A DNA stretch of 64,000 nucleotides, from positions 240,642 through 304,641 of IMG/VR virus record IMGVR_UViG_3300012943_000028. The stretch is one strand, 5' to 3'. The stretch is from a virus (Duplodnaviria > Heunggongvirae > Uroviricota > Caudoviricetes). This document shows positions 4,801 to 63,632 of the stretch, piece by piece. The translations under genes and the position numbers were made by a program. Each line of letters opens with the position of its first letter. The stretch's first letter is position 1. Below the pieces are notes generated by a model, which was given only the letters and a program-made list of their open reading frames with translations, was not told the DNA's origin and made no database searches.

Positions 4801-4988
4801 GCTGCGTCGACGACCTTCAACTTGCCGAAGCCACCGGTCCAGAGCTCCTGGCGGCGGTCGAGGTTGGAGCCGAGCGTGATGTTCATGTGCCACGTCGGGT
4901 TGGGGTTCCAGTTGCCCGACTCCAGCAGCTTGATGATCTGCTCCGAGCTCTCTTCGTTCAGCTCGAATACCACCTTCTTACGAGACAT
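4797..4988 (-). CDS. hypothetical protein
   Basis: 63-aa ORF. Confidence 0.4.
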   Translation of the reverse strand: MSRKKVVFELNEESSEQIIKLLESGNWNPNPTWHMNITLGSNLDRRQELWTGGFGKLKVVDAA

Positions 4989-6363
4989 ACTTGAACTCCT
5001 TCAGCTCGCGACGGAACATCTCGTCGGCGGAATCCGCCTCGAGGGAGGCGAGGACCTTCTTCAGGTCGGCGACCTCGTTCTTGAGCTCGTCGATCTTGTC
5101 CTTCGTGAGGTTCCACATCTGCATCTGCAGCAGGCGGTCGTAGTCGACGAACTTGTTCTTGAGCAGCAGCTCGACAAGGTCGTCCTTCTTGCGATTGCGG
5201 AACTTGTCCACGTTGTCGAGGTAGAAGAGGATGAAGCGCAGCTTCTCGCTCATCCACCTGATGGACTCCTTGGTGGTGGCGATCTGCAGCTGCCGACGGT
5301 CTTCGTAGCGGGCGACTCGCCAGGTGGTGAAGCGCTCGATGATGTCCTCGACCGAGTCGAACCGCTTCAGCGTGCCGTCGATGTCCCAGAGCGTGTAGTT
5401 CTCCGTGTCACGCGCAACCAGCTTGAACTTGCGGTACAGCTCCTCGACGTCGAGGGCGGTGGTGCTGCGCGGGACGGTGATGGTGAAGTCGAACTTCGTC
5501 TCGTCAGTCTTGCCGATGTCGTAGTCCTTGACGAAGCCGCTCTCCTCGAGCTTGTGGAGCGTGTCCTTGAAGTCGTCGAGGTAGGTGCCGACTGGAAGTT
5601 CGGTCACCTTGATGGTGGTCGAGTTGACGACCTCCAGCTTGCCAGTGATCACGACCTGGCCCGTTTCTGGGTTGCGCTCGATCGTGCCGCTGAAGCCCTT
5701 GTACCAGGGAGTCAGCGTGCCGGCCTTCAGCTTCTTGCCGTCGAGGACCTTCAGCACGGCATCACGCACGTGCAGTGGGTGGTACGCCATGATCAGTGAG
5801 GCGTGACCAGTGCCGGTGCCGACCGAGCCGTTGATGAGGGCGATCGGCAGCAGTGGCGCGTACGTCTTCGGTTCGATCTTCTCGCCGTCCGTCTCGTTGT
5901 GCTCGAGGATGGCGTCGTCGGCCTTGTTGAAGAGAGAGCGGAAGTAGGGTGAGAGCTTCGTCTCGATGTACCTCGCGGCGGCAGGCTCTGCTGTCAGGCG
6001 ACTGCCGAACTGGCCTTCAGGTACGAAGAGGTTCATGTTGTTCGAGCCAGCGTAGTTCGTAGCGAGGCCGACGATGGTGCTCTGCATCGAACCGATACCG
6101 TGGTGGTAGTCGGTGCTGGCGGCGATGGCGGCGGCGAGACGCTCGACCTGGATCAGGCCAGCGGATTCACCACGAAGGAAGGTGCCATAGAGCGCCTTGC
6201 GCTGCGACGGCTTGAGGCCGTCCGTCAGGCGAGGGATCGAGCGAACGTTGTCGTACAGCGAGAACTCCTTGAAGGCAGAGTTCATGAAGTGCTGCGCGCG
6301 AATCTGGCGGCTGGCACGATATGCAGCGGAATCAGTCATCGTGTTGGTTCCCTTTGTTGCCAT
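4978..6363 (-). CDS. DNA topoisomerase II medium subunit (T4 gp52-like, GyrA-like breakage-reunion domain)
   Basis: Contains DGLKPSQRK (GyrA/ParC active-site region). The length and domain order fit the T4 gp52 family. The start is uncertain: ATG at 6363 (MATKG; leaderless, 6 nt after the -10) or 6339 (MTDSAAY, with an AAAGGGAA ribosome-binding site). The ORF-track start at 6399 lies upstream of the predicted promoter -10. Confidence 0.85.
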   Translation of the reverse strand: MATKGTNTMTDSAAYRASRQIRAQHFMNSAFKEFSLYDNVRSIPRLTDGLKPSQRKALYGTFLRGESAGLIQVERLAAAIAASTDYHHGIGSMQSTIVGLATNYAGSNNMNLFVPEGQFGSRLTAEPAAARYIETKLSPYFRSLFNKADDAILEHNETDGEKIEPKTYAPLLPIALINGSVGTGTGHASLIMAYHPLHVRDAVLKVLDGKKLKAGTLTPWYKGFSGTIERNPETGQVVITGKLEVVNSTTIKVTELPVGTYLDDFKDTLHKLEESGFVKDYDIGKTDETKFDFTITVPRSTTALDVEELYRKFKLVARDTENYTLWDIDGTLKRFDSVEDIIERFTTWRVARYEDRRQLQIATTKESIRWMSEKLRFILFYLDNVDKFRNRKKDDLVELLLKNKFVDYDRLLQMQMWNLTKDKIDELKNEVADLKKVLASLEADSADEMFRRELKEFKYVS

Positions 6364-6420
6364 GTGGCTATTATACCTCGAACCTGTGTGAAAGTACACT
6401 TAACATAATGTGCCTCAGCC
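6361..6420 (-). promoter_or_regulatory. conserved phage promoter motif copy 1 (TTAACATAAT half-site, GTGTAC box, 18 nt, TATAAT)
   Basis: Minus strand reads CATTATGTTAA-GTGTAC-N18-TATAAT-AGCCAC-ATG. Same architecture as five other intergenic sites. Confidence 0.55.
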
Positions 6421-6421
6421 G

Positions 6422-6745
6422 TCAGAGCTTGACCGAGACAGTCGTGTGGAGCTTCACCTCGCCAGGGTGGGCGTAGAAGACCTTGAACTTCTTGCTGTAG
6501 TGGCTCTCGGCCTCCCGCAGAATCCACCAGTTCAGTGCCTCCTCGCTCTCGAACCAGGCCACCGTCAGGTAGTTGTCAGTGCAGCTGCTCGAACCGCCGT
6601 ACGGGTCGGGATACGACCGTGTCTCGTTCTGGAAAACGAAGAACTGGGCGGAACTTGGCAGCTTGTCCACGCTTGATACAACGTGGCACTGCTTGTTGTA
6701 CTTCGTGTAGGCGTCTCGCTCTGCGTCTGACATTCCCATGATCAT
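6422..6745 (-). CDS. hypothetical protein
   Basis: 107-aa ORF between the two topoisomerase subunit genes. Confidence 0.45.
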   Translation of the reverse strand: MIMGMSDAERDAYTKYNKQCHVVSSVDKLPSSAQFFVFQNETRSYPDPYGGSSSCTDNYLTVAWFESEEALNWWILREAESHYSKKFKVFYAHPGEVKLHTTVSVKL

Positions 6746-8694
6746 GCCTCGATGAAGTCTTCGAAGTTGGCGGCCGGCGTTTCGAGCCAGGACTTGCGAT
6801 CGTCGGCCCGCTGGCCGTTGAAGGCGAGGTCGATGGCGGCCTTGTCATCCTTGTCACGGACGCTGATCTTGAAGAGGTAGCGGTCCAGGCTCTCCATGTA
6901 GGGCTTGAAGTCGGGGGTCTTGGTCGTGCCGAGACCCTTGAAGTAGCGGTGCGTCCAGCCTCGCAGCTTCTCGCCGTCCTTCTTGACCCAGTCCTTGAAC
7001 TCCCGCTCGGTGAAGAACTCGTGGACGACCTTGTCCTTCACGTACACCTTCACGATCGGCGTGCGGAGGATGTGGACGAAGCCCATCTCGAAGAGCTCCG
7101 GCCAGAAGTGGTCGAAGAGGTTGATGAGCAGGCCAGAAATGTGGGCACCGTCAACGTCTGCGTCGGTGGCGAAGGCGACCCGCCCGAAGCGAAGCTCGCG
7201 GAGCGTGTTGACCTTGACGCCGATCTGCAGGCCGATGATCGTGAGAATCTTCTGGATTTCGTTCGGCTCCGTCTTGCCTTCCTTCCGCTTGTCGAGGCCG
7301 AGCACGCGGGCAATCTCCTTCTCGCGTACGTTGAGCGGCTTGCCCTTGAGCGGGAAGGTTGCGACATATTGGTGGTCAGCGGTTGCGAAGAGGGACTTGG
7401 ACGCCGAGTCACCTTCTGCCAGGAAGAGCGTGCACTTGCTGCGATCTGCCTTCTCGCTGGCGTCGTTGAACTTGTCGATGCGCTTGGGGTTGGCCTTGTC
7501 GAGGTCCTTGTTGAGCTTGCGCAGCTCGCGCAGCTCGTCCATCTGCTGCTTTGCCATGACCCAGTCGATGATGGCCTGGATGATCGACGACTTGACGATC
7601 TTGTTGATCATCTTGTCGGGCACCGTCCATGTCGTCTTGTAGTCCTTCACCTCGGTGATGAGGTCTTCCTTCGTCTGCGACGAGTAGCGAGGGTTGACGA
7701 TGTTGCAGTCGAGGAAGAGGGTGAGGTGCTGGCGGATGTCGGCGGGCTTGACCTCGACCTTGTGCTTGCGCTTGATGTGGTCTCGCAGGCTGTCGACGAT
7801 CTGGTTGATGACGTACGTGATGTGCGATCCGCCGATCTTCGTGTTCGTGCCGTTCACGAAGGAGACGTGCTGGAAGCCGTCGTCGCTGGAGGCGATGGCG
7901 ACCCGCCAGTTGTCGGTCTCGTCGAAGGCGTACTCGCCTTCCTCGCCGACGTACATCTCGACGTAGTCCTTGAAGGTGCGCGTCATGATGCGCTCACCGT
8001 TCCAGTAGACCTTCAGGTGGGTGTTGATGCCGGCGATGTCGACGACCCGCTTGAGCAGCATCGCCACGTTGCCCTCATCGAGGGTGCAGCCGAGCTTCGT
8101 GAAGTCGGGGCGGTAGGTGATGCGCGTGTAGCCCTTCGAGCCGTCAGCGTCGGTCACCTTGGCAGGCTTGCGGTCCTGCGAGTTCTCTTCGAAGACCATC
8201 TTGAACTTCTGCTTGCCGTCGCAGGTCTCGACGGTGAATCGTTCAGAGAAGATGTTGGTGAGGGCGGCACCTTCACCGTTCTGGCCAGTGAGCATTGCCT
8301 GGTCGTTGTCGTCGAAGTTCGAGCCGGCGCGCAGCTCGAAGATCATCTCAGGCACCCACTGGTTGTACTCCTTGTGCTTGACGACGGGGATACCACCGTT
8401 GTCGTACACGCTGATCTCCCCCTTCTCGGCGTCTACCTCGACTCGAATGATGTCGAGGTGCTTGCCTTCGGGCCGCTTCGAGTGGTCGACCGAGTTGGAG
8501 ATGACCTCGTCGAAAAGCTTGATGAAGCCGGGGTTGAAGGTGATTTCCTTCTTGACCATCCGCTTGGTGGCGGGGTCGTACGTGTAGGCCGTCTCGGTAT
8601 GGGCGGTGATGGAGCCGATGTAGCGGCCCGGGCGGAGCAGAACGTGTTCTACCTCGCTGAGCTTCTTGAACTTCTGTTCGATGGTCTTGACCAC
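6742..8694 (-). CDS. DNA topoisomerase II large subunit (T4 gp39/gp60-like, GyrB-like ATPase plus Toprim)
   Basis: The N-terminal LRPGRYIGS matches the GyrB LKRPGMYIG motif. The 650-aa length fits a fused gp39+gp60 arrangement. GTG start at 8694 with a TGAGG ribosome-binding site. Sits next to the gp52-like gene. Confidence 0.9.
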   Translation of the reverse strand: MVKTIEQKFKKLSEVEHVLLRPGRYIGSITAHTETAYTYDPATKRMVKKEITFNPGFIKLFDEVISNSVDHSKRPEGKHLDIIRVEVDAEKGEISVYDNGGIPVVKHKEYNQWVPEMIFELRAGSNFDDNDQAMLTGQNGEGAALTNIFSERFTVETCDGKQKFKMVFEENSQDRKPAKVTDADGSKGYTRITYRPDFTKLGCTLDEGNVAMLLKRVVDIAGINTHLKVYWNGERIMTRTFKDYVEMYVGEEGEYAFDETDNWRVAIASSDDGFQHVSFVNGTNTKIGGSHITYVINQIVDSLRDHIKRKHKVEVKPADIRQHLTLFLDCNIVNPRYSSQTKEDLITEVKDYKTTWTVPDKMINKIVKSSIIQAIIDWVMAKQQMDELRELRKLNKDLDKANPKRIDKFNDASEKADRSKCTLFLAEGDSASKSLFATADHQYVATFPLKGKPLNVREKEIARVLGLDKRKEGKTEPNEIQKILTIIGLQIGVKVNTLRELRFGRVAFATDADVDGAHISGLLINLFDHFWPELFEMGFVHILRTPIVKVYVKDKVVHEFFTEREFKDWVKKDGEKLRGWTHRYFKGLGTTKTPDFKPYMESLDRYLFKISVRDKDDKAAIDLAFNGQRADDRKSWLETPAANFEDFIEA

Positions 8695-43149: not shown

Positions 43150-43218
43150 GGCTCTACCTAGGGGAACTGGTGGTCCATTGTAACACGGTGACAATCAGCA
43201 GTAAACCAACAACCTCGA

Positions 43219-52527: not shown

Positions 52528-53111
52528 ATACCATAGTCAATGGACAGCTTGGTGTACGCCTTCAAGTTGCCGATGGCATCATGAAGTGCGTTGTGACGGA
52601 CCACCTTTGGGTCCGAAAAGTATTCTTCAAGGGCCTTCTGGAAGGTCTCAACTCCACGGTTGTAGACAGCGGTCGCTTCATCAAGCGCCATGCCTTCTGC
52701 AAGGGCCTGTCTAGCAAAGCGAGCCATGTTGTCAAACACGAACTCCACGTGGCTGAACTTTGGGTGTTCGGCAAGGCCGTGCGCCTTGAAGAGAAGCCAG
52801 TCGGTTGGGTAGTCTACGATAACCGAGAACTTGTCCGCCGGCAGCTCGTCAAGCCATTCCCAGAGACGAGCGACAAGCGTTGAGCGCTTCATGCCGTACT
52901 TGACTGGATCAAGAAGCGGATAGATGTTCTGGACCACCCACGTCGATGACAACGACTGATCAAAGTCCAGGTTCTCTGCGTAAAACGTAAGATCAGTCGA
53001 TGCGGCGATGCCGATCGAGATCATGTCCGCCTTAGCAAAGTCGGTGAACTCTGTGTCAATATGAAGGCGGAGGGTCTTTTGAGAACTCTGTGAAGCAGTA
53101 GTCGTAGCCAT
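52524..53111 (-). CDS. DEDDh 3'-5' exonuclease (DnaQ/RNase T-like)
   Basis: LHIDTEFTDF (Exo I) and HNALHDAIG (Exo III) motifs. The start is uncertain because the ORF overlaps the DHFR 3' end. Confidence 0.65.
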   Translation of the reverse strand: MATTTASQSSQKTLRLHIDTEFTDFAKADMISIGIAASTDLTFYAENLDFDQSLSSTWVVQNIYPLLDPVKYGMKRSTLVARLWEWLDELPADKFSVIVDYPTDWLLFKAHGLAEHPKFSHVEFVFDNMARFARQALAEGMALDEATAVYNRGVETFQKALEEYFSDPKVVRHNALHDAIGNLKAYTKLSIDYGI

Positions 53112-53595
53112 TTTCGTGCAGCTTTGCTGATGTGTAGCGGTTGTAGTACAGCGTTGAGCAGCCTGATGGCATGAAGATGCCACCCTTGAACTGCCACCCC
53201 TCGTATGGGAACTTCACGTCACCTTCTGGATCAGCATCAACGACGGTGATGTAGAACGTTGCGGGACGAAGTGAGCATGCCTCTTCGTAGATTCTCTGGC
53301 CACCGATGGCAAAGACATCACCATCTTCCTGCGAGAGGGCCTCAGCAAGAGTTGGGTAGGTGATGACCTTATGGCGCCAGCGGAACTGAGGGTCTGACGT
53401 GATGACGATGTTCTTGCGCTTCGGCAACGGTCGGCCGATCGACTCAAAGGTCTTGCGACCCATGACGACGGTCTTCTCAGCCGTCACGCGCTTGAAGTTG
53501 AACAGGTCCGCTGGCAGGTGCCATGGGATCGTGTTGGTGCGTGAATCGCCGATGACGCCGTTGAGCGCCACCGCAGCAATGACGTTGAGGTTCAT
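53056..53595 (-). CDS. folA: dihydrofolate reductase
   Basis: NVIAAVALNGVIGDSRTNTIPWHLPADLFNFKRVT...VVMGRKTFESIGRPLPKRKNIVIT is near-canonical for FolA. Confidence 0.85.
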   Translation of the reverse strand: MNLNVIAAVALNGVIGDSRTNTIPWHLPADLFNFKRVTAEKTVVMGRKTFESIGRPLPKRKNIVITSDPQFRWRHKVITYPTLAEALSQEDGDVFAIGGQRIYEEACSLRPATFYITVVDADPEGDVKFPYEGWQFKGGIFMPSGCSTLYYNRYTSAKLHENGYDYCFTEFSKDPPPSY

Positions 53596-54066: not shown

Positions 54067-54111
54067 GGCAAAACAAAGGGCGAGAGGTTCATTCTAAACC
54101 TGTCGCCCTTT
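54067..54111 (-). terminator. intrinsic terminator (minus strand)
   Basis: Hairpin AAAGGGCGA-loop-TCGCCCTTT followed on the minus strand by GTTTTGCC. Confidence 0.45.
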
Positions 54112-54118
54112 GGGTAAA

Positions 54119-54626: not shown

Positions 54627-56243
54627 TTAGAAGGACTGAATCAGCTGCGGAGCGGCTGAGTCGAATCCAACGATGTCGAGCATGCCTGGGTCCTTCGGGT
54701 CAGCGATGGTGAAGTTCGTCGTAGACGTACCACACACGATCAGCTTCGCGTTCTTGACGTACTGCTTGCGGTAGCGAGCGAGGGCCTCGACCGGCTGCAT
54801 GCGACCAGCGTAGGTCTCGTTGTCAGTGATGACAACGAACTTCTCAACACCGTCCATCTTGTGCTCGAGGGCGTGCGTCATCGGCAGAGAGCAGTCGGTG
54901 CTGCCCCACGAGAATGCCTGGATGACCTTCAGCACCTTGTCGAGGCGCATTGCTGGCGTGATCTTGAGCTCACCCATCTTGTGGTTGAAACCACCGATCC
55001 AGTAGTTCGGCTCGCGCTTCGCTACGGCCAGGGCCATAACACCAGCCACCTCGGCGGCGGTGAGGTTGTTTGCGCCAGTCACGCGCGCGCCGAACATCGA
55101 GCCAGAGCAGTCCACGCCGATGAGGTGACCCTTACCGGTTGACTCAATGAACTCGAACGACTCGTAGAACGCATCGTTCAGGGCGTCAAGCACCTGCTGA
55201 ACTGGAGTCCAGGTCAGCGAGCCCTTGTCACCATGACCCTGCTTGTACTGGTTGAAGGCGTTGAGGATCGTGATCGGGTGAACACGGCCTGCCTTGATCG
55301 CCTCCTTGTCAGTCAGCTTCTCGATGACGACCTTCATGTCGGCCGACAGCGGCTTGAGCACACCCACATTCGTGAGCTGGCCCAGCTTGCGGATGAGTGC
55401 CGTCATACCCATGCCTGGGAGCAGGGCTGACATCACCTTCACATCACGCTGCAGCTCAGTTGGGATCATCTCCCAAGTGATTGCGTCGTTCGACTCGATC
55501 AGCTTGATGGCCTTCTTCGCATCGGCACCCTTGAGCGCCTCGAAGTCGTTGAGCAGCTGCGGAACAACTGCACCAGCCTCCAGGCCTTCAGCACCCTTCA
55601 CGACGTAGCGGAAGAGGTTCGACTGAACGTCAGAGAGCGGCTTCACGTGCGCCAGGCGGAGCACGTCACGGTGAGCCCAGCCATCACGTGACTGGTACTT
55701 GAGCAGCTGGAGGGCCAGCTTGTCCTCACCACGCTTGGTGTACCACGCAGCGACACCACGCTTTGCAGCAGCGTTCCACTTGCCGAGCTCATCGAGCGCA
55801 GCAACGAACTGGAACAGGTGCGTGCCGATACGGCAGACCTTTGGCAGCGCCTCGTAGGCGGCCTTCACGGTCTCCTCGTTACCATGCACAGCGCACATGG
55901 CAAGAGCAAAGACCGATGGATCGTTCTTCGGAGCACGGCCGGCGAGCGACAGCTCGGTGATGCGGTTGACAGTGCGGACACCGTCAGCCTTGATGCACTC
56001 GAGAAGGTTCTTCGACGCGCCGAGGGTCAGCTTCTTGGCAGAAGCGTAGTACGAAGGCGTGTCTGAGCCGAGGATCAGGAAGCGGTCGAGGTAGCCCCAC
56101 TGATCAAGCTGGAAGGTCATTCCGCCTGCAGAGTTGCGCACCATTTCTGCCTCGCGACCTGGGAGCGCCTGCGTCTGTGGGGTCACAGTCGAAGCTGGCT
56201 TGCGAGTGTTGGTTGAAACGTAGATTGCCGATGAACGTGCCAT
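54627..56243 (-). CDS. rsr: Ro60-related protein (TROVE domain plus C-terminal vWA-like domain), Rsr homolog
   Basis: AGGMTFQLDQWGYLDRFLILGSDTPSYYA is the TROVE signature; a vWA-type DxSGS motif (VDCSGSM) lies in the C-terminal part. Start set at ATG 56243, preceded by an AAGGAG ribosome-binding site. The ORF-track extension to 56390 lacks a ribosome-binding site. Confidence 0.8.
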   Translation of the reverse strand: MARSSAIYVSTNTRKPASTVTPQTQALPGREAEMVRNSAGGMTFQLDQWGYLDRFLILGSDTPSYYASAKKLTLGASKNLLECIKADGVRTVNRITELSLAGRAPKNDPSVFALAMCAVHGNEETVKAAYEALPKVCRIGTHLFQFVAALDELGKWNAAAKRGVAAWYTKRGEDKLALQLLKYQSRDGWAHRDVLRLAHVKPLSDVQSNLFRYVVKGAEGLEAGAVVPQLLNDFEALKGADAKKAIKLIESNDAITWEMIPTELQRDVKVMSALLPGMGMTALIRKLGQLTNVGVLKPLSADMKVVIEKLTDKEAIKAGRVHPITILNAFNQYKQGHGDKGSLTWTPVQQVLDALNDAFYESFEFIESTGKGHLIGVDCSGSMFGARVTGANNLTAAEVAGVMALAVAKREPNYWIGGFNHKMGELKITPAMRLDKVLKVIQAFSWGSTDCSLPMTHALEHKMDGVEKFVVITDNETYAGRMQPVEALARYRKQYVKNAKLIVCGTSTTNFTIADPKDPGMLDIVGFDSAAPQLIQSF

Positions 56244-56790
56244 GTGATATCTCCTTGATGACGGCTGCCACTGCGGCAGCAAAGAACTTAACTTAGAGAG
56301 GCTGACTCCGACAAAGGTTAGTGTCGGGCCTTCGGATACTTCAGCTGCGGCCAGGTTTGCAACCCTAACCGCGTGTTGCCGCTGGGACAACGCTTGGTTC
56401 CTACACCAGTTGATTTGGCAACTGGTAACCTATCGACTTAATTCGTGTCGCAACTATTGGGTGTTTCAGTCCCACAAATATCGAGTGTTCTACCTCGCAC
56501 TATCTCTTGTTGGGTTGTTGCGGCATACGCCTGGGCCGGTCAAGAGAACCCGCATGCGATTCGGCACATGCGCCTATCCGATCACAAACTGCTGGTCTGC
56601 TTTCGGAACCTACCGTTAAGTATTGGGTAACCAACACCATCGGTGAAGTCAGCTTTTCTAAGTCAAGTTTTCGAAGATGAAGAGTTCAGAGAAGGGAACA
56701 AAAGAGTACAAGTCGTTCATAACCAAGATAACCAACTTGTTCCGGTTCCAAAGAACTCTTTAAGATGAGAATTCTACCACAGAGGTGCGT
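56244..56790 (-). ncRNA. candidate Y-RNA-like noncoding RNA locus (ORF-free region adjacent to rsr)
   Basis: About 550 nt without a credible minus-strand ORF in an otherwise gene-dense genome. It contains several stem-loops (GGTTAG...CTAACC, CCAGTTG...CAACTGG) and UCCGAAGG / CUUGACC-like segments on the minus strand. Bacterial and phage Rsr genes are usually accompanied by Y RNAs. Confidence 0.35.
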
Positions 56791-56814
56791 GGCAGTAAAC
56801 TCTCGTGCGGCTAT

Positions 56815-57402
56815 TTATACGGTTTCGTCAACCTGACGAATGACAATCGGGAGTTCATCGTCCATCTTGTAGATGATGCCAGGCGGAACGATGATGCAAC
56901 CTTCGGGAAGGTTTATGCGCTGTGCTGGTGTCTGTGCAACAGAATGGTAGGTGAAGCGGCGCACGACACCGTCACCGCCGACGAAGTGCAGCCATTCGTA
57001 GATGTTAGCGTCCATGAACTTGCCAAGTGGTTTTTCCGGGCCGGCCACAACGAAGAATGGCTGGATGGCGGCGAGGTTCAACTTACCTGGGTCTGTCGGC
57101 GCCTTTTCGGTCTGAGGGGCTCCAGTCAACAGGCCTTGAAAATGGTTGATGGCGCCGTCTGTGTCGATGATGAACTCTCGAAGATCACCTTTGTAGATGC
57201 GGCGCTGGAGATAGAAGAAGTGAAGGGCTGAGCCGACCTTCATGATGCTGAAGGCGGCGAGGGCGGCCAGAACGAATGACGGCCACCCGAGAAAGAAGGT
57301 CTTCCATAGAAGGAGGATTCCAACTATGGAAGACAGAAGACCGATGATGAGCGACCCACGACGTTGAGCTTCAAGAAATTGCTGCATGCGTGGGTCGATC
57401 AT
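56815..57402 (-). CDS. membrane-anchored hypothetical protein
   Basis: 195 aa with N-terminal transmembrane helices. Confidence 0.5.
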   Translation of the reverse strand: MIDPRMQQFLEAQRRGSLIIGLLSSIVGILLLWKTFFLGWPSFVLAALAAFSIMKVGSALHFFYLQRRIYKGDLREFIIDTDGAINHFQGLLTGAPQTEKAPTDPGKLNLAAIQPFFVVAGPEKPLGKFMDANIYEWLHFVGGDGVVRRFTYHSVAQTPAQRINLPEGCIIVPPGIIYKMDDELPIVIRQVDETV

Positions 57403-57411
57403 CTCTACTCC

Positions 57412-57984
57412 TTACCGTGCCTTGGCTGCGTGCTGTCGAACGCGCGACTTCTCATCGACGAACGACAGCAAGAACTCCATCTGATCCGCAAGGATGTTGC
57501 GGTTGGCCAAGATGAGGTGCTCAGCCCGGTTCGGCACATACGGCGCATAGAGCAGCGGCATGTTTGCCTGCTCAGGCGTGCGGTCGTCCTTCTTCTGGTT
57601 GCACTTCGTGCAGGCCGAAACGCAGTTCATCCATGAGTCAGCACCCTTCTGTGCCTTTGGGATGATGTGGTCACGCGTGAGGTTCGACTCACCGAAGATG
57701 TCGCCGCAGTATGCGCACACGTGATGGTCACGGCGGAACAGCTCCTTGTTGTTGAGAGCTGGAACGCGCGTCTTGCGCTTCGTCTTGCCCTTGACGGCCA
57801 TGATCGAGGAGGTGACAACGACAGTCTGGGTTCCCGTCTTGGACGAGGTACCACCCTTCACGACCGTTTCTACCTCACCAATTTCCCAGGCGACCAGGTT
57901 CTTGGCGTGATAGGTCACTGCGGCCTTCCACGAAATCCACTTGCTCGGTTGACCCGAAGCGTCAAGCTGAAGAATCAATGCCAT
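57412..57984 (-). CDS. HNH endonuclease
   Basis: HHVCAYCGD...LTRDHIIPKAQKGADSWMNCVSACTKCNQKK is a canonical HNH motif. Confidence 0.8.
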   Translation of the reverse strand: MALILQLDASGQPSKWISWKAAVTYHAKNLVAWEIGEVETVVKGGTSSKTGTQTVVVTSSIMAVKGKTKRKTRVPALNNKELFRRDHHVCAYCGDIFGESNLTRDHIIPKAQKGADSWMNCVSACTKCNQKKDDRTPEQANMPLLYAPYVPNRAEHLILANRNILADQMEFLLSFVDEKSRVRQHAAKAR

Positions 57985-60804: not shown

Positions 60805-60847
60805 GTGGGATACCTCTTATTGTACTTTGATTTGGGTTGCCGGTAAA

Positions 60848-62889: not shown

Positions 62890-62964
62890 TGGTGCTCGCT
62901 GTAGGGATCGAACCTACGACCTCTTCTATGTCAAAGAAGTGCTCTACCACTGAGCTAAGCGAGC
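62890..62964 (-). tRNA. tRNA-Val (anticodon GAC)
   Basis: Minus strand GCTCGCT-TA-GCTC-AGTGGTA-GAGC-A-CTTCT-TTGACAT-AGAAG-AGGTC-GTAGG-TTCGATC-CCTAC-AGCGAGC-A-CCA gives a full cloverleaf with canonical U8, GG in the D-loop, U33/A37, TTCGATC T-loop and an encoded CCA. Confidence 0.8.
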
Positions 62965-63455
62965 CCGAGTTTCTTCATCTTCTTCTTGATCCAGTCCTTC
63001 TTGACTGGGCTCAAGTGATCGTAAAACGTAATTCCATTCAGGTGATCAAGCTCATGCTGAAAGCAGACTGCGTCAATGCCATCAAGCGTAAGCTCAAACT
63101 CTTCAAACTTGTCGTCACGAGCCTTCACCTTTACCCAGCTTGGGCGCTTCACGATGGCAAACAGGCCAGGGAAGCTCAAGCAGCCTTCGTTGAAGGGCAC
63201 GATCTCTGTCGATGCTTCAACGATCTCTGGGTTGAAGAACACACGGCGCTCCATCTTTCCACCCATGGAACTTGTGTCCATGATGAAGATGCGGAACGGG
63301 TATCCAATCTGAATGGCCGAAAGCCCAATGCCATTCTGGCGCTTCATCACCTCAAACATCTCAACGATCGTCGCCTCATCAACGTTAGTGATGCGGGAAA
63401 CCGGGTTGCTGATCATCTTCAGCGTCTTGTCTGGGTAGTGAAGAACTTTCATCAA
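62955..63455 (-). CDS. def: peptide deformylase
   Basis: GIGLSAIQIG (motif 1), EGCLSFPG (motif 2) and QHELDHLNG (HExxH motif 3). Confidence 0.85.
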   Translation of the reverse strand: MMKVLHYPDKTLKMISNPVSRITNVDEATIVEMFEVMKRQNGIGLSAIQIGYPFRIFIMDTSSMGGKMERRVFFNPEIVEASTEIVPFNEGCLSFPGLFAIVKRPSWVKVKARDDKFEEFELTLDGIDAVCFQHELDHLNGITFYDHLSPVKKDWIKKKMKKLGLA

Positions 63456-63556
63456 GGTGGTGCCCTCACACAGAATCGAACTGTGGTTTCAGCCTTACCA
63501 AAGCCGCGTAATAGCCACTATACTATGAGGGCATAATCTCGTACATCTCTATTTAT

Positions 63557-63632
63557 TGGAGCGCCCAGTGGGAATCGGACCCACGACCTTCGCCTTCGGA
63601 TGACGACGCTCTATCCACTGAGCTACAGGCGC
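63557..63632 (-). tRNA. tRNA-Arg (anticodon CCG)
   Basis: Minus strand GCGCCTG-TA-GCTC-AGTGGATA-GAGC-G-TCGTC-ATCCGAA-GGCGA-AGGTC-GTGGG-TCCGATT-CCCAC-TGGGCGC-T-CCA gives a cloverleaf with two G-U pairs in the acceptor stem. The T-loop has C at position 55 (unusual). Confidence 0.7.

Follow-up and report, generated by a model that had tools for sequence, protein, structure and literature searches.

Candidate Y RNAs and a leader hairpin upstream of the Ro60 gene of an uncultured tailed phage

Introduction

What does a tailed phage keep in the several hundred non-coding nucleotides directly upstream of its Ro60 (Rsr) gene? The question is raised by a 64,000-nt stretch of the virus record IMGVR_UViG_3300012943_000028 (Caudoviricetes; positions 240,642 to 304,641), which is referred to here as the window. 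Y RNAs are thought to decide the partner to which Ro60 is tethered, and an earlier reading of the window, made from its sequence only, had suggested that the region beside the Ro60 gene specifies one or two Y-RNA-like RNAs. By comparing this locus with related loci, we find two RNA modules on the Ro60 strand that share a conserved, covarying core, followed by a conserved hairpin in the leader of the Ro60 gene, and we consider it likely that the region is a minus-strand transcription unit making the non-coding partners of the phage Ro60.

Phage Ro60 genes with adjacent Y RNAs are already known, and at that level the core idea of the sequence-only reading is correct. The available text of Chen et al. 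2014 (PMC4201824) gives GNCGAAN0-1G and YUAY as motifs of YrlA RNAs and reports Y RNAs in 22 phages, so that phage examples have been on record since 2014; it also describes two Y RNAs of M. smegmatis, YrlA and YrlB, that lie upstream of rsr and are processed from one precursor. In Thermus phage phiLo, according to the available part of a 2025 report (PMC12135203), Yrl1 and Yrl2 lie upstream of Ro60 and bind both the phage Ro60 and the host PNPase.

Results

The Ro60 gene and the gap upstream of it

As the sequence-only reading had proposed from a TROVE signature and a C-terminal vWA region, the gene is Ro60/Rsr. Its protein matches Pfam TROVE (7e-34) and vWA_Ro60 (8e-53) as well as PHROG 850, 'RNA-binding protein' (8e-68), and phmmer against solved chains gave full-length matches, over residues ~21-538, to human RO60 (E 5e-104), D. 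radiodurans Rsr (3.5e-102) and Xenopus Ro60 (1.2e-99). The TROVE domain (HEAT-repeat ring) is followed by a Ro60-type vWA domain, together covering the full length, and the E-values against human RO60 and against bacterial Rsr are similar. An AGGAG-like sequence stands in related loci at the place equivalent to the Shine-Dalgarno (SD) sequence. A longer, TTG-started open reading frame (ORF) for Ro60 that reaches 56390 was rejected as a spurious extension over the RNA region. The features of the locus, in the order in which they would be transcribed, are as follows.

56799-56771, minus strand: promoter-like site TTTACT-17-TAGAAT with TG before the -10 hexamer, predicted start near 56764
56760-56680, minus strand: module 1, predicted YrlB/Yrn2-like long hairpin, 81 nt; CCG at 56745-56743, UUGGUUAUC at 56735-56727, G of UUUUG at 56699, outer stem 56760-56753 with 56687-56680
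56669-56285, minus strand: module 2, predicted Y-RNA-like RNA with a two-part terminal stem, 385 nt
56653-56626, minus strand: 5' half of the module 2 core, with lower-stem strand GCUGACUUCAC (56653-56643), bulged C (56642), G (56641), upper-stem strand GGUGUUGG (56638-56631) and loop start UUACC (56630-56626)
56625-56347, minus strand: interior of module 2, a hairpin array with several GAA loops (CCGAAU, GUAGAACA, ACUGAAACA, ACGAAUUAA)
56427-56400, minus strand: conserved hairpin UACCAGUUG-ccaaau-CAACUGGUG (helix to 56404) followed by UAGG (56403-56400)
56344-56301, minus strand: 3' half of the module 2 core, with CUGAAGUAUCCGA (56344-56332), upper-stem strand CCGACACU (56327-56320), spacer AACCUUU, G (56312) and lower-stem strand to 56301
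56283-56262, minus strand: leader hairpin UUUG-CUGCCG-cag-UGGCAG-CCG, one base after module 2 and six bases before the SD
56256-56251, minus strand: Ro60 SD AAGGAG, read from the sequence, 7 nt before the ATG
54627..56243, minus strand: Ro60/Rsr gene, 538 aa, ATG at 56243

The loci used for comparison come from searches with the Ro60 protein, which gave ~30 distinct IMG/VR phage loci with Ro60 54-83% identical to that of the window, plus distant phage, metagenome and bacterial loci (numbered L001 and so on where one has to be named). DNA and protein searches of isolated phages returned no Ro60 above about 41% identity, and a scan of bacterial genomes returned none above about 49% and hence no clue to the host; the clade is therefore known only from uncultured phages and metagenomes.

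The gap at 56244..56814 (571 nt) holds only short ORFs, for example 56410-56619 on the plus strand (69 aa) and 56500-56640 on the minus strand (46 aa), and no ORF in it is conserved at the protein level among 30 related loci. Translated matches in the gap are confined to the closest relatives and occur in several frames and on both strands simultaneously, which indicates conservation of the nucleotide sequence and not of a protein. An ORF-free gap of ~450-600 nt before Ro60 recurs in most of the related phage loci. The median intergenic gap of the window is 65 nt by a crude greedy gene call. Two apparent gaps in this call are larger, but long ORFs, dropped for overlap with a chosen ORF, run across both of them, so that the region before Ro60 is very probably the largest true non-coding stretch of the window, as had been supposed.

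Folding and conservation, the checks that the sequence-only reading had proposed for this region, both spoke for a structured RNA. The gap is strongly structured on the minus strand, with a fold z of -5.1 as opposed to -2.1 on the plus strand, and the same holds for module 2 by itself (-6.1, or -6.08 to two decimals, on the minus strand and -3.7 on the plus strand); covariation in the related loci is described below. RNAduplex on the two halves of the gap gave full-length duplexes and was uninformative. By nhmmer, L001 and L030 alone could be aligned to the gap sequence. MAFFT on natural or spliced sequences misplaced the variable spacers, and we used instead motif-anchored pseudo-alignments of equal length, in which variable spacers were omitted and constant linkers were inserted to keep MAFFT in register. 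The slid and shuffled controls applied to these alignments flatter the anchored structures somewhat, a bias from which the leave-out covariance model R1, introduced below, is free.

A core shared by two RNA modules

Two motif-defined elements, here called module 1 and module 2, recur upstream of Ro60 and on its strand across the related loci. Strand and boundaries, which in the earlier view could not be fixed by eye, can now be put forward: we propose the minus strand and the ends 56760-56680 and 56669-56285. On the 5' side of the core a lower helix ends in a C-G pair, which is followed by a bulged C and a G ('C-CG') and by a spacer of 2-4 nt; the 5' strand of an upper helix then ends in UUGG and leads into a loop that starts with UUAYC. 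The 3' side consists of CCGA plus ~4 nt, which complete the upper helix, 3-5 nt ending in UUU, and a G with the second strand of the lower helix ('UUUG'). The consensus can be written low5-C-CG-N(2-4)-N4UUGG-UUAYC ... CCGA-N4-N(3-5)UUU-G-low3. The 64 kb contain just two copies of TTGGTTAYC, one at 56735-56727 and one at 56634-56626, each on the minus strand and in a module core.

In its predicted pairing the shared core has the architecture of the Ro60-binding helix of Y RNAs. Both modules have a long terminal stem in which helix, bulged C and G on the 5' side face UU(U)G on the 3' side, and both are on the minus strand, no more than 520 nt ahead of the ATG, within the ~4 kb on the same strand that we took as the limit of Y-RNA proximity. 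The YUAY that follows the Ro-site helix is present within UUGGUUAYC, as UUAC in module 2 and UUAU in module 1. At the place of GNCGAAN0-1G, module 2 reads ACCGAUGG and module 1 ACCGGAAC, so that CCG is retained and there is no exact match to the motif; more distant loci carry GCCGAAG at this YrlA 5' motif.

Module 1

The covariance model R1 was built from 13 small Ro60-adjacent modules of other loci, with the window, L001 and L030 left out. Run over both strands of the 64-kb window it gave a single hit, 56691-56753 on the minus strand (33.1 bits, E 7.2e-6). Over 49 sources (the window and 48 loci) it found 36 sites, all of them on the Ro60 strand and either up- or downstream of the gene, and in 30 bacterial Rsr loci from several phyla it found 21 sites, again all on the Rsr strand. 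In the model-derived alignment of the small family 88.7% of cells are paired, compared with 36-45% in slid controls, and 16 of the 17 pairs are changed on both sides; an independent anchored alignment of the small modules gave similar pairing numbers. The fold z of module 1 is -2.83.

Small modules of L015 score 23-24 bits with the Rfam Y_RNA model and 29-30 bits (29.5, E 8e-4) with RF01656, a nematode small-RNA family that we take to be that of the stem-bulge (Y-like) RNAs, aligned to both models across CCG...GGGUUAUC...CUUG and CCG...UGGGUUAUC...CUUG; both scores are below the 38-bit threshold. The leave-out hit, the covariation of the family and these sub-threshold alignments together identify module 1, as a predicted RNA, as a small Y RNA of the long-hairpin kind, comparable to YrlB and Yrn2. 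It forms a long hairpin with the Ro site in its stem and a small loop, and its 81 nt lie within the usual Y-RNA size of ~80-130 nt.

Small modules are also found in other arrangements. Five of them stand in tandem upstream of Ro60 in L015 (1450-2230), each reading GCCGAAG...GGUUAUC...CUUG, and in three loci small Y modules occur immediately downstream of Ro60 as well as upstream (L008 2018-2164; L009 4089-4264; L012 4353-4420).

Module 2

The minimum free energy fold of module 2 closes on 56669-56657 with 56297-56285 and on 56653-56647 with 56307-56301, and the family alignment lengthens the inner stem (56653-56643 with 56312-56301) up to the C-G pair 56643/56312, leaving one bulged C at 56310. 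In the motif-anchored alignment of the core from 30 phage loci (A4), 87.5% of cells are paired, compared with 28-45% in slid controls, and both sides have changed in 10 of 11 lower-stem pairs and 4 of 8 upper-stem pairs. The UUGG/CCGA pairing itself covaries, to UUGA/UCAA in L061, UCGA/UCGA in L050 and UUGG/CCAA in several loci. CCG is invariant in all 30 large modules, and the 3' motif GAAAUnU-CCGA-N-UUUG is conserved in the 30 loci.

The window and L001 carry an 8-nt duplication within this 3' motif (56312-56344; UCCGAAGGC-CCGACACU), so that CCGA is present in two copies there, one in the conserved CUGAAGUAUCCGA and another in the strand that actually pairs with UUGG. Either strand of the upper stem could also fold into a hairpin of its own in the window and its closest relatives (56612-56644 and 56308-56327; GGUGUUGG/CCAAUACU and CCGACA/UGUCGG).

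Inside module 2 lies an array of hairpins, and each helix between 56607 and 56404 is followed by a UAG-like spacer (UAGG, UAGUG, AUAUUUG, AUAGUUG, AUAGGU, UAGG). L001 and L030 retain the hairpins with altered sequences, and the number of units varies among relatives. Counted over 30 interiors, which are related and not independent sequences, there are 60 hairpins with a GAA loop, 44 UA[GU][GU] flanks and 22 units that combine the two, as against 13.7 +/- 4.1, 7.6 +/- 2.5 and 0.8 in dinucleotide shuffles. The last unit has the form 'UACC-NNN-loop-NNN-GGUG UAGG' in ~20 of the 30 loci, with varying inner pairs.

This last hairpin, at 56427-56400, has the order known from YrlA, an acceptor-stem-like hairpin and then UAG, and it occupies the position of the acceptor-stem-like hairpin and UAG that precede the D arm in a YrlA-like RNA of L022. 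The 3' junction of module 2, CUGAAGUAU-CCGA, likewise resembles GCUAAAACA-CCGA of the L022 RNA. Because YUAY, the acceptor-like hairpin with UAG and the 3' junction are retained, we infer that module 2 derives from a YrlA-type RNA by degeneration and multiplication of the tRNA-like arms.

Predicted promoter and transcript

The sequence-only reading had seen no copy of a recurrent promoter motif in the gap; there is a promoter-like one, at 56799-56771, just ahead of module 1. The pattern TTTAC-N16-19-TANAAT has four copies in the window, all on the minus strand, where 0.03 would be expected, and these probably mark host-RNA-polymerase promoters of the leftward gene block.

43177-43205, minus strand: TTTAC-N16-19-TANAAT
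54091-54118, minus strand: TTTAC-N16-19-TANAAT
56771-56799, minus strand: TTTAC-N16-19-TANAAT, the copy upstream of module 1
60819-60847, minus strand: TTTAC-N16-19-TANAAT

Of 30 related loci, 26 have a TANAAT in the 110 nt that precede their first module, as compared with 9% of background windows, and in loci that have no module 1 it stands directly before module 2 (for example L002, L037, L044, L051 and L061). We found no convincing terminator between the modules and Ro60; the sole terminator-like site, 56572-56551, is inside module 2 and has a poor T run. The lack of a terminator between the elements suggests that the modules are cut from a common precursor, as reported for M. smegmatis, and this precursor probably includes Ro60.

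The leader hairpin

The pattern YUUG, 3-6 bp stem, 2-12 nt loop, CCG was searched for in 32 loci (the 30 loci with module 2, plus L003 and L004); in 27 of them it located the leader hairpin shortly before the Ro60 SD, and in L040 and L047 the hairpin was also recognised by eye. Its alignment has 99.3% of cells paired and changes on both sides in 3 of 5 pairs, the stem CUGC/GCAG being replaced by UUGU/ACAA, UUGGC/GCCAA, CUAC/GUAG or UUCAC/GUGAA. The hairpin remains at the start of Ro60 even in loci with an inserted ORF following the Y RNAs (L039, L040 and L047). In the more distant loci L008, L009, L013 and L014 an ordinary Y module abuts or overlaps the SD instead.

As in the module cores, the G of the hairpin is paired to the first of the two Cs in CCG, so that three elements of the Ro site (lower helix, bulged C-G and UUU) appear to be mimicked in circularly permuted order: the hairpin looks like a permuted Ro site. 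As a hypothesis only, Ro60 might bind there and affect translation or processing. A terminator, a sigma-54 promoter and an RNase III site were considered for the hairpin and rejected together: it has no U run, its promoter elements would be in the wrong order, its loop varies in length from 2 to 12 nt and its stem has only 4-6 bp.

Neighbouring genes and other RNAs

Directly upstream of the putative Y-RNA promoter lies a 195-aa ORF (56815-57402, minus strand), hydrophobic at its N terminus by eye, which has no Pfam or PHROG match and is weakly conserved (24-55% identity in ~10 related loci). The next gene (57412-57984, minus strand) encodes a 190-aa HNH-domain protein (Pfam HNH_5, 2.5e-14). 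At least 23 related loci have its counterpart (39-85% identical) in this same place, two genes ahead of Ro60, a position unusually stable for an HNH endonuclease; it may merely reflect collinear genomes, or there may be a link to the Ro60 locus. Elsewhere the window encodes three tRNAs (62890-63632, minus strand; Val-GAC, Thr-GGT, Arg-CCG), gyrase A-like and B-like subunits of a type II topoisomerase (4978-8694, minus strand; Pfam) and a dihydrofolate reductase-like ORF judged by eye only (53056-53595, minus strand). This gene content fits a large virulent phage.

Further RNA genes were met upstream of Ro60 in the other loci. L016 has six tRNA genes there (491-1809), interleaved with YrlA-looking elements that bear a perfect T arm; a tmRNA gene of L025 (1580-1921; 101 bits) ends ~170 nt upstream of Ro60; and a match to the Pistol ribozyme (39.5 bits, gathering threshold 34.5) lies ~1.6 kb upstream of Ro60 in L019 (844-907), a metagenome contig.

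Discussion

The promoter-like signal, the strand shared by all elements, the leave-out hit of R1 and the covariation of the core in 30 loci lead us to regard it as probable, with some confidence, that the gap is a minus-strand transcription unit making non-coding partners of the phage Ro60. For transcription, processing, Ro60 binding, effector and autoregulation we infer the following course, the first four from what is published on other systems. A transcript begun at the sigma-70-type promoter at 56799-56771 would carry module 1, module 2, the leader hairpin and the Ro60 ORF in this order, and the two modules would be excised from it as Y RNAs of 81 and 385 nt. The phage Ro60 would bind the helix that they share, and the remainder of each RNA would serve as a gate and as a tether for a host factor, for which PNPase is the documented case. 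Such a Ro60 ribonucleoprotein would reshape RNA decay or repair during infection, and the leader hairpin might let Ro60 bind its own mRNA beside the ribosome-binding site.

Several observations weigh against this interpretation. At 385 nt (250-390 nt in its relatives), module 2 is ~3x the size of a typical Y RNA of 80-130 nt. RNAalifold on the window, L001 and L030 favours local hairpins of both upper-stem strands over the UUGG/CCGA pairing, and because of this preference these hairpins may be an alternative conformation in this sub-clade. No T arm (5-bp stem, UUCRANN loop) was found in the gap, nor at the expected place in 30 members of the clade. The alignments have limits of their own: one bulged C of the window was removed in A4; the pair counts of the anchored alignments A5 and A6 are optimistic, because their 3' partners were chosen partly by pairing and spacers were omitted; and the related loci share phylogeny, so that cell counts overstate the number of independent events. 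Finally, neither the gap nor module 1 by itself gave a relevant Rfam match at E <= 10.

The Rfam scan that the sequence-only reading had recommended was run on the whole window as well, where it found nothing at threshold besides the three tRNAs at 62.9-63.6 kb; the window does not reach the 38-bit gathering threshold of Y_RNA (RF00019) and has no hit to it at E <= 10. No Y-RNA family was thus matched. Rfam is equally empty for L022 2244-2380, which has the YrlA 5' motif, a perfect T arm, an acceptor-like hairpin and a D arm, and because Rfam misses such textbook-looking YrlA candidates in other Ro60 loci, we judge its silence here to be uninformative. As for the proposal of Y-RNA-like RNAs itself, the R1 hit and the covarying core in 30 loci uphold two of them on the Ro60 strand; the canonical tRNA-like domain that had been expected is not present in the gap, and one of the two RNAs has ~3x the size usual for Y RNAs.

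Could the same structures instead be a long 5' untranslated leader of the Ro60 mRNA that acts in cis, without separate trans-acting Y RNAs? The region does lie immediately upstream of the ORF on the same strand, has no convincing terminator before the ORF (56572-56551, with its poor T run, being internal to module 2) and ends in a conserved hairpin six bases from the SD. Homologous small modules also occur downstream of Ro60, however (L008, L009, L012), or in tandem arrays of up to five (L015), and where an ORF has separated the modules from Ro60 (L039, L040, L047) the hairpin has stayed with Ro60. The core moreover matches the architecture of trans-acting Y RNAs, and the upstream RNAs of M. 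smegmatis are, in the available text of PMC4201824, processed to stable Rsr-bound species. We therefore think a purely cis-acting leader unlikely. We give still less credit to module 2 as a canonical YrlA tRNA mimic with insertions, whose T, D and acceptor-like arms would be recognised by tRNA enzymes. Such a mimic would agree with the UUAC (YUAY) kept after the Ro site, with the hairpin of 7-9 bp and UAG at an acceptor-stem-like position, with the likeness of CUGAAGUAU-CCGA to GCUAAAACA-CCGA of L022, and with a T-like hairpin (loop GUCGAAA) in some relatives. It is contradicted by the T-arm scan, which found nothing in the gap and the 30 clade members and yet recovered, in L016, L019 and L022, perfect T arms that adjoin the 5' motif (L020 also has a perfect one). 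By eye, UAGG is followed by variable hairpins rather than by a UAGCUCAGUUGGUAGAGC-like arm, and no D arm with a GG loop is recognisable; a 6-nt spacer separates the acceptor-like stem from the preceding hairpin, whereas tRNA and YrlA have no spacer there; and both ARAGORN and the Rfam tRNA model gave no match on the gap.

We consider it highly improbable that the gap serves to specify a small protein or several, or that it is a functionless degenerate remnant. There are short ORFs on both strands, 56410-56619 (plus) and 56500-56640 (minus) among them, but none is conserved over the 30 loci, the translated similarity is limited to the closest relatives and appears there in multiple frames and on both strands at once, and base-pair covariation together with conserved single-stranded motifs indicates selection on RNA.

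Within the interpretation as Y RNAs made for the phage Ro60, a more specific proposal is possible, which we put forward tentatively and hold to be doubtful as it stands. Module 2 might represent a new class of Y RNA, in which an expandable array of GAA loops and UAG-like spacers brings a ribonuclease or RNA-binding protein of the host together with the phage Ro60, as a multivalent platform or as a sponge, and/or translation of Ro60 might be autoregulated through the permuted site at 56283-56262. A phage clade known from metagenomes only, with Ro60 and a Y-RNA effector that is not tRNA-like, would offer a compact system in which to ask how the effector module sets the partner and function of Ro60 in infection. 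If the leader hairpin does bind Ro60, the protein would regulate its own production through a mimic of its RNA partner. The core consensus and R1 also locate Y RNAs beside Ro60 in bacterial loci of several phyla, and in phage loci in which Rfam detects none.

Compared with the known systems, three features appear to be undescribed in the literature as far as its available parts go: a Y RNA of 250-390 nt with a hairpin-array effector domain in place of a tRNA mimic, a core that combines both strands of the Ro60 helix with the GGUUAYC loop start, as in metazoan Y RNAs, and a permuted Ro-site hairpin in the leader of Ro60. Like the YrlA and YrlB RNAs, among which those of M. smegmatis come closest in arrangement, the modules described here adjoin Ro60/Rsr on the same strand, two of them upstream of the gene and probably in one precursor, with the Ro-site motif near the 5' end, YUAY ~10 nt later and one of the pair, here module 1, a simple long hairpin. 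They differ in that the larger RNA has 385 nt here as against ~110-150 nt, in that YrlA has T and D arms whereas module 2 has a GAA-loop array, no canonical T arm and no D arm recognisable by eye, and in their order, which is YrlA then YrlB in M. smegmatis and small then large here. In Salmonella and M. smegmatis, furthermore, only the 5' strand of the Ro-binding helix is recognisable, and here both strands are.

The metazoan Y RNAs (RF00019) and RF01656 share with our core the bulged C and G on the 5' side, UUG on the 3' side, the upper helix and the GUUAUC loop start, and relatives of module 1 align to these models across the shared elements, although the modules of the window do not score. 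Unlike the metazoan and nematode RNAs, those described here have a lower stem that is not conserved in sequence, a bacterial-type promoter and no pol III features, and module 2 is far larger. Thermus phage phiLo likewise has a Ro60 gene with two Y-RNA-like sequences directly upstream, and for it engagement of the host PNPase is proposed in the available part of the report (PMC12135203). Its Ro60 protein is distant from the one studied here (E 5e-7 over part of the protein), and its Yrl1 and Yrl2 have the usual stem-bulge-stem with CGAA, with no large hairpin-array RNA or leader hairpin reported in that part.

Operators of ribosomal proteins and of thrS are autoregulatory mimics of the protein's main RNA ligand. 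We know of no described example of autoregulation of Ro60 by ligand mimicry, and the Ro60 literature, in its available parts, makes no mention of Ro60 autoregulation. Like those operators, the leader hairpin is a short hairpin by the ribosome-binding site that, judged by its predicted pairing, carries features of the primary site (UUUG and C-CG), here in circularly permuted order.

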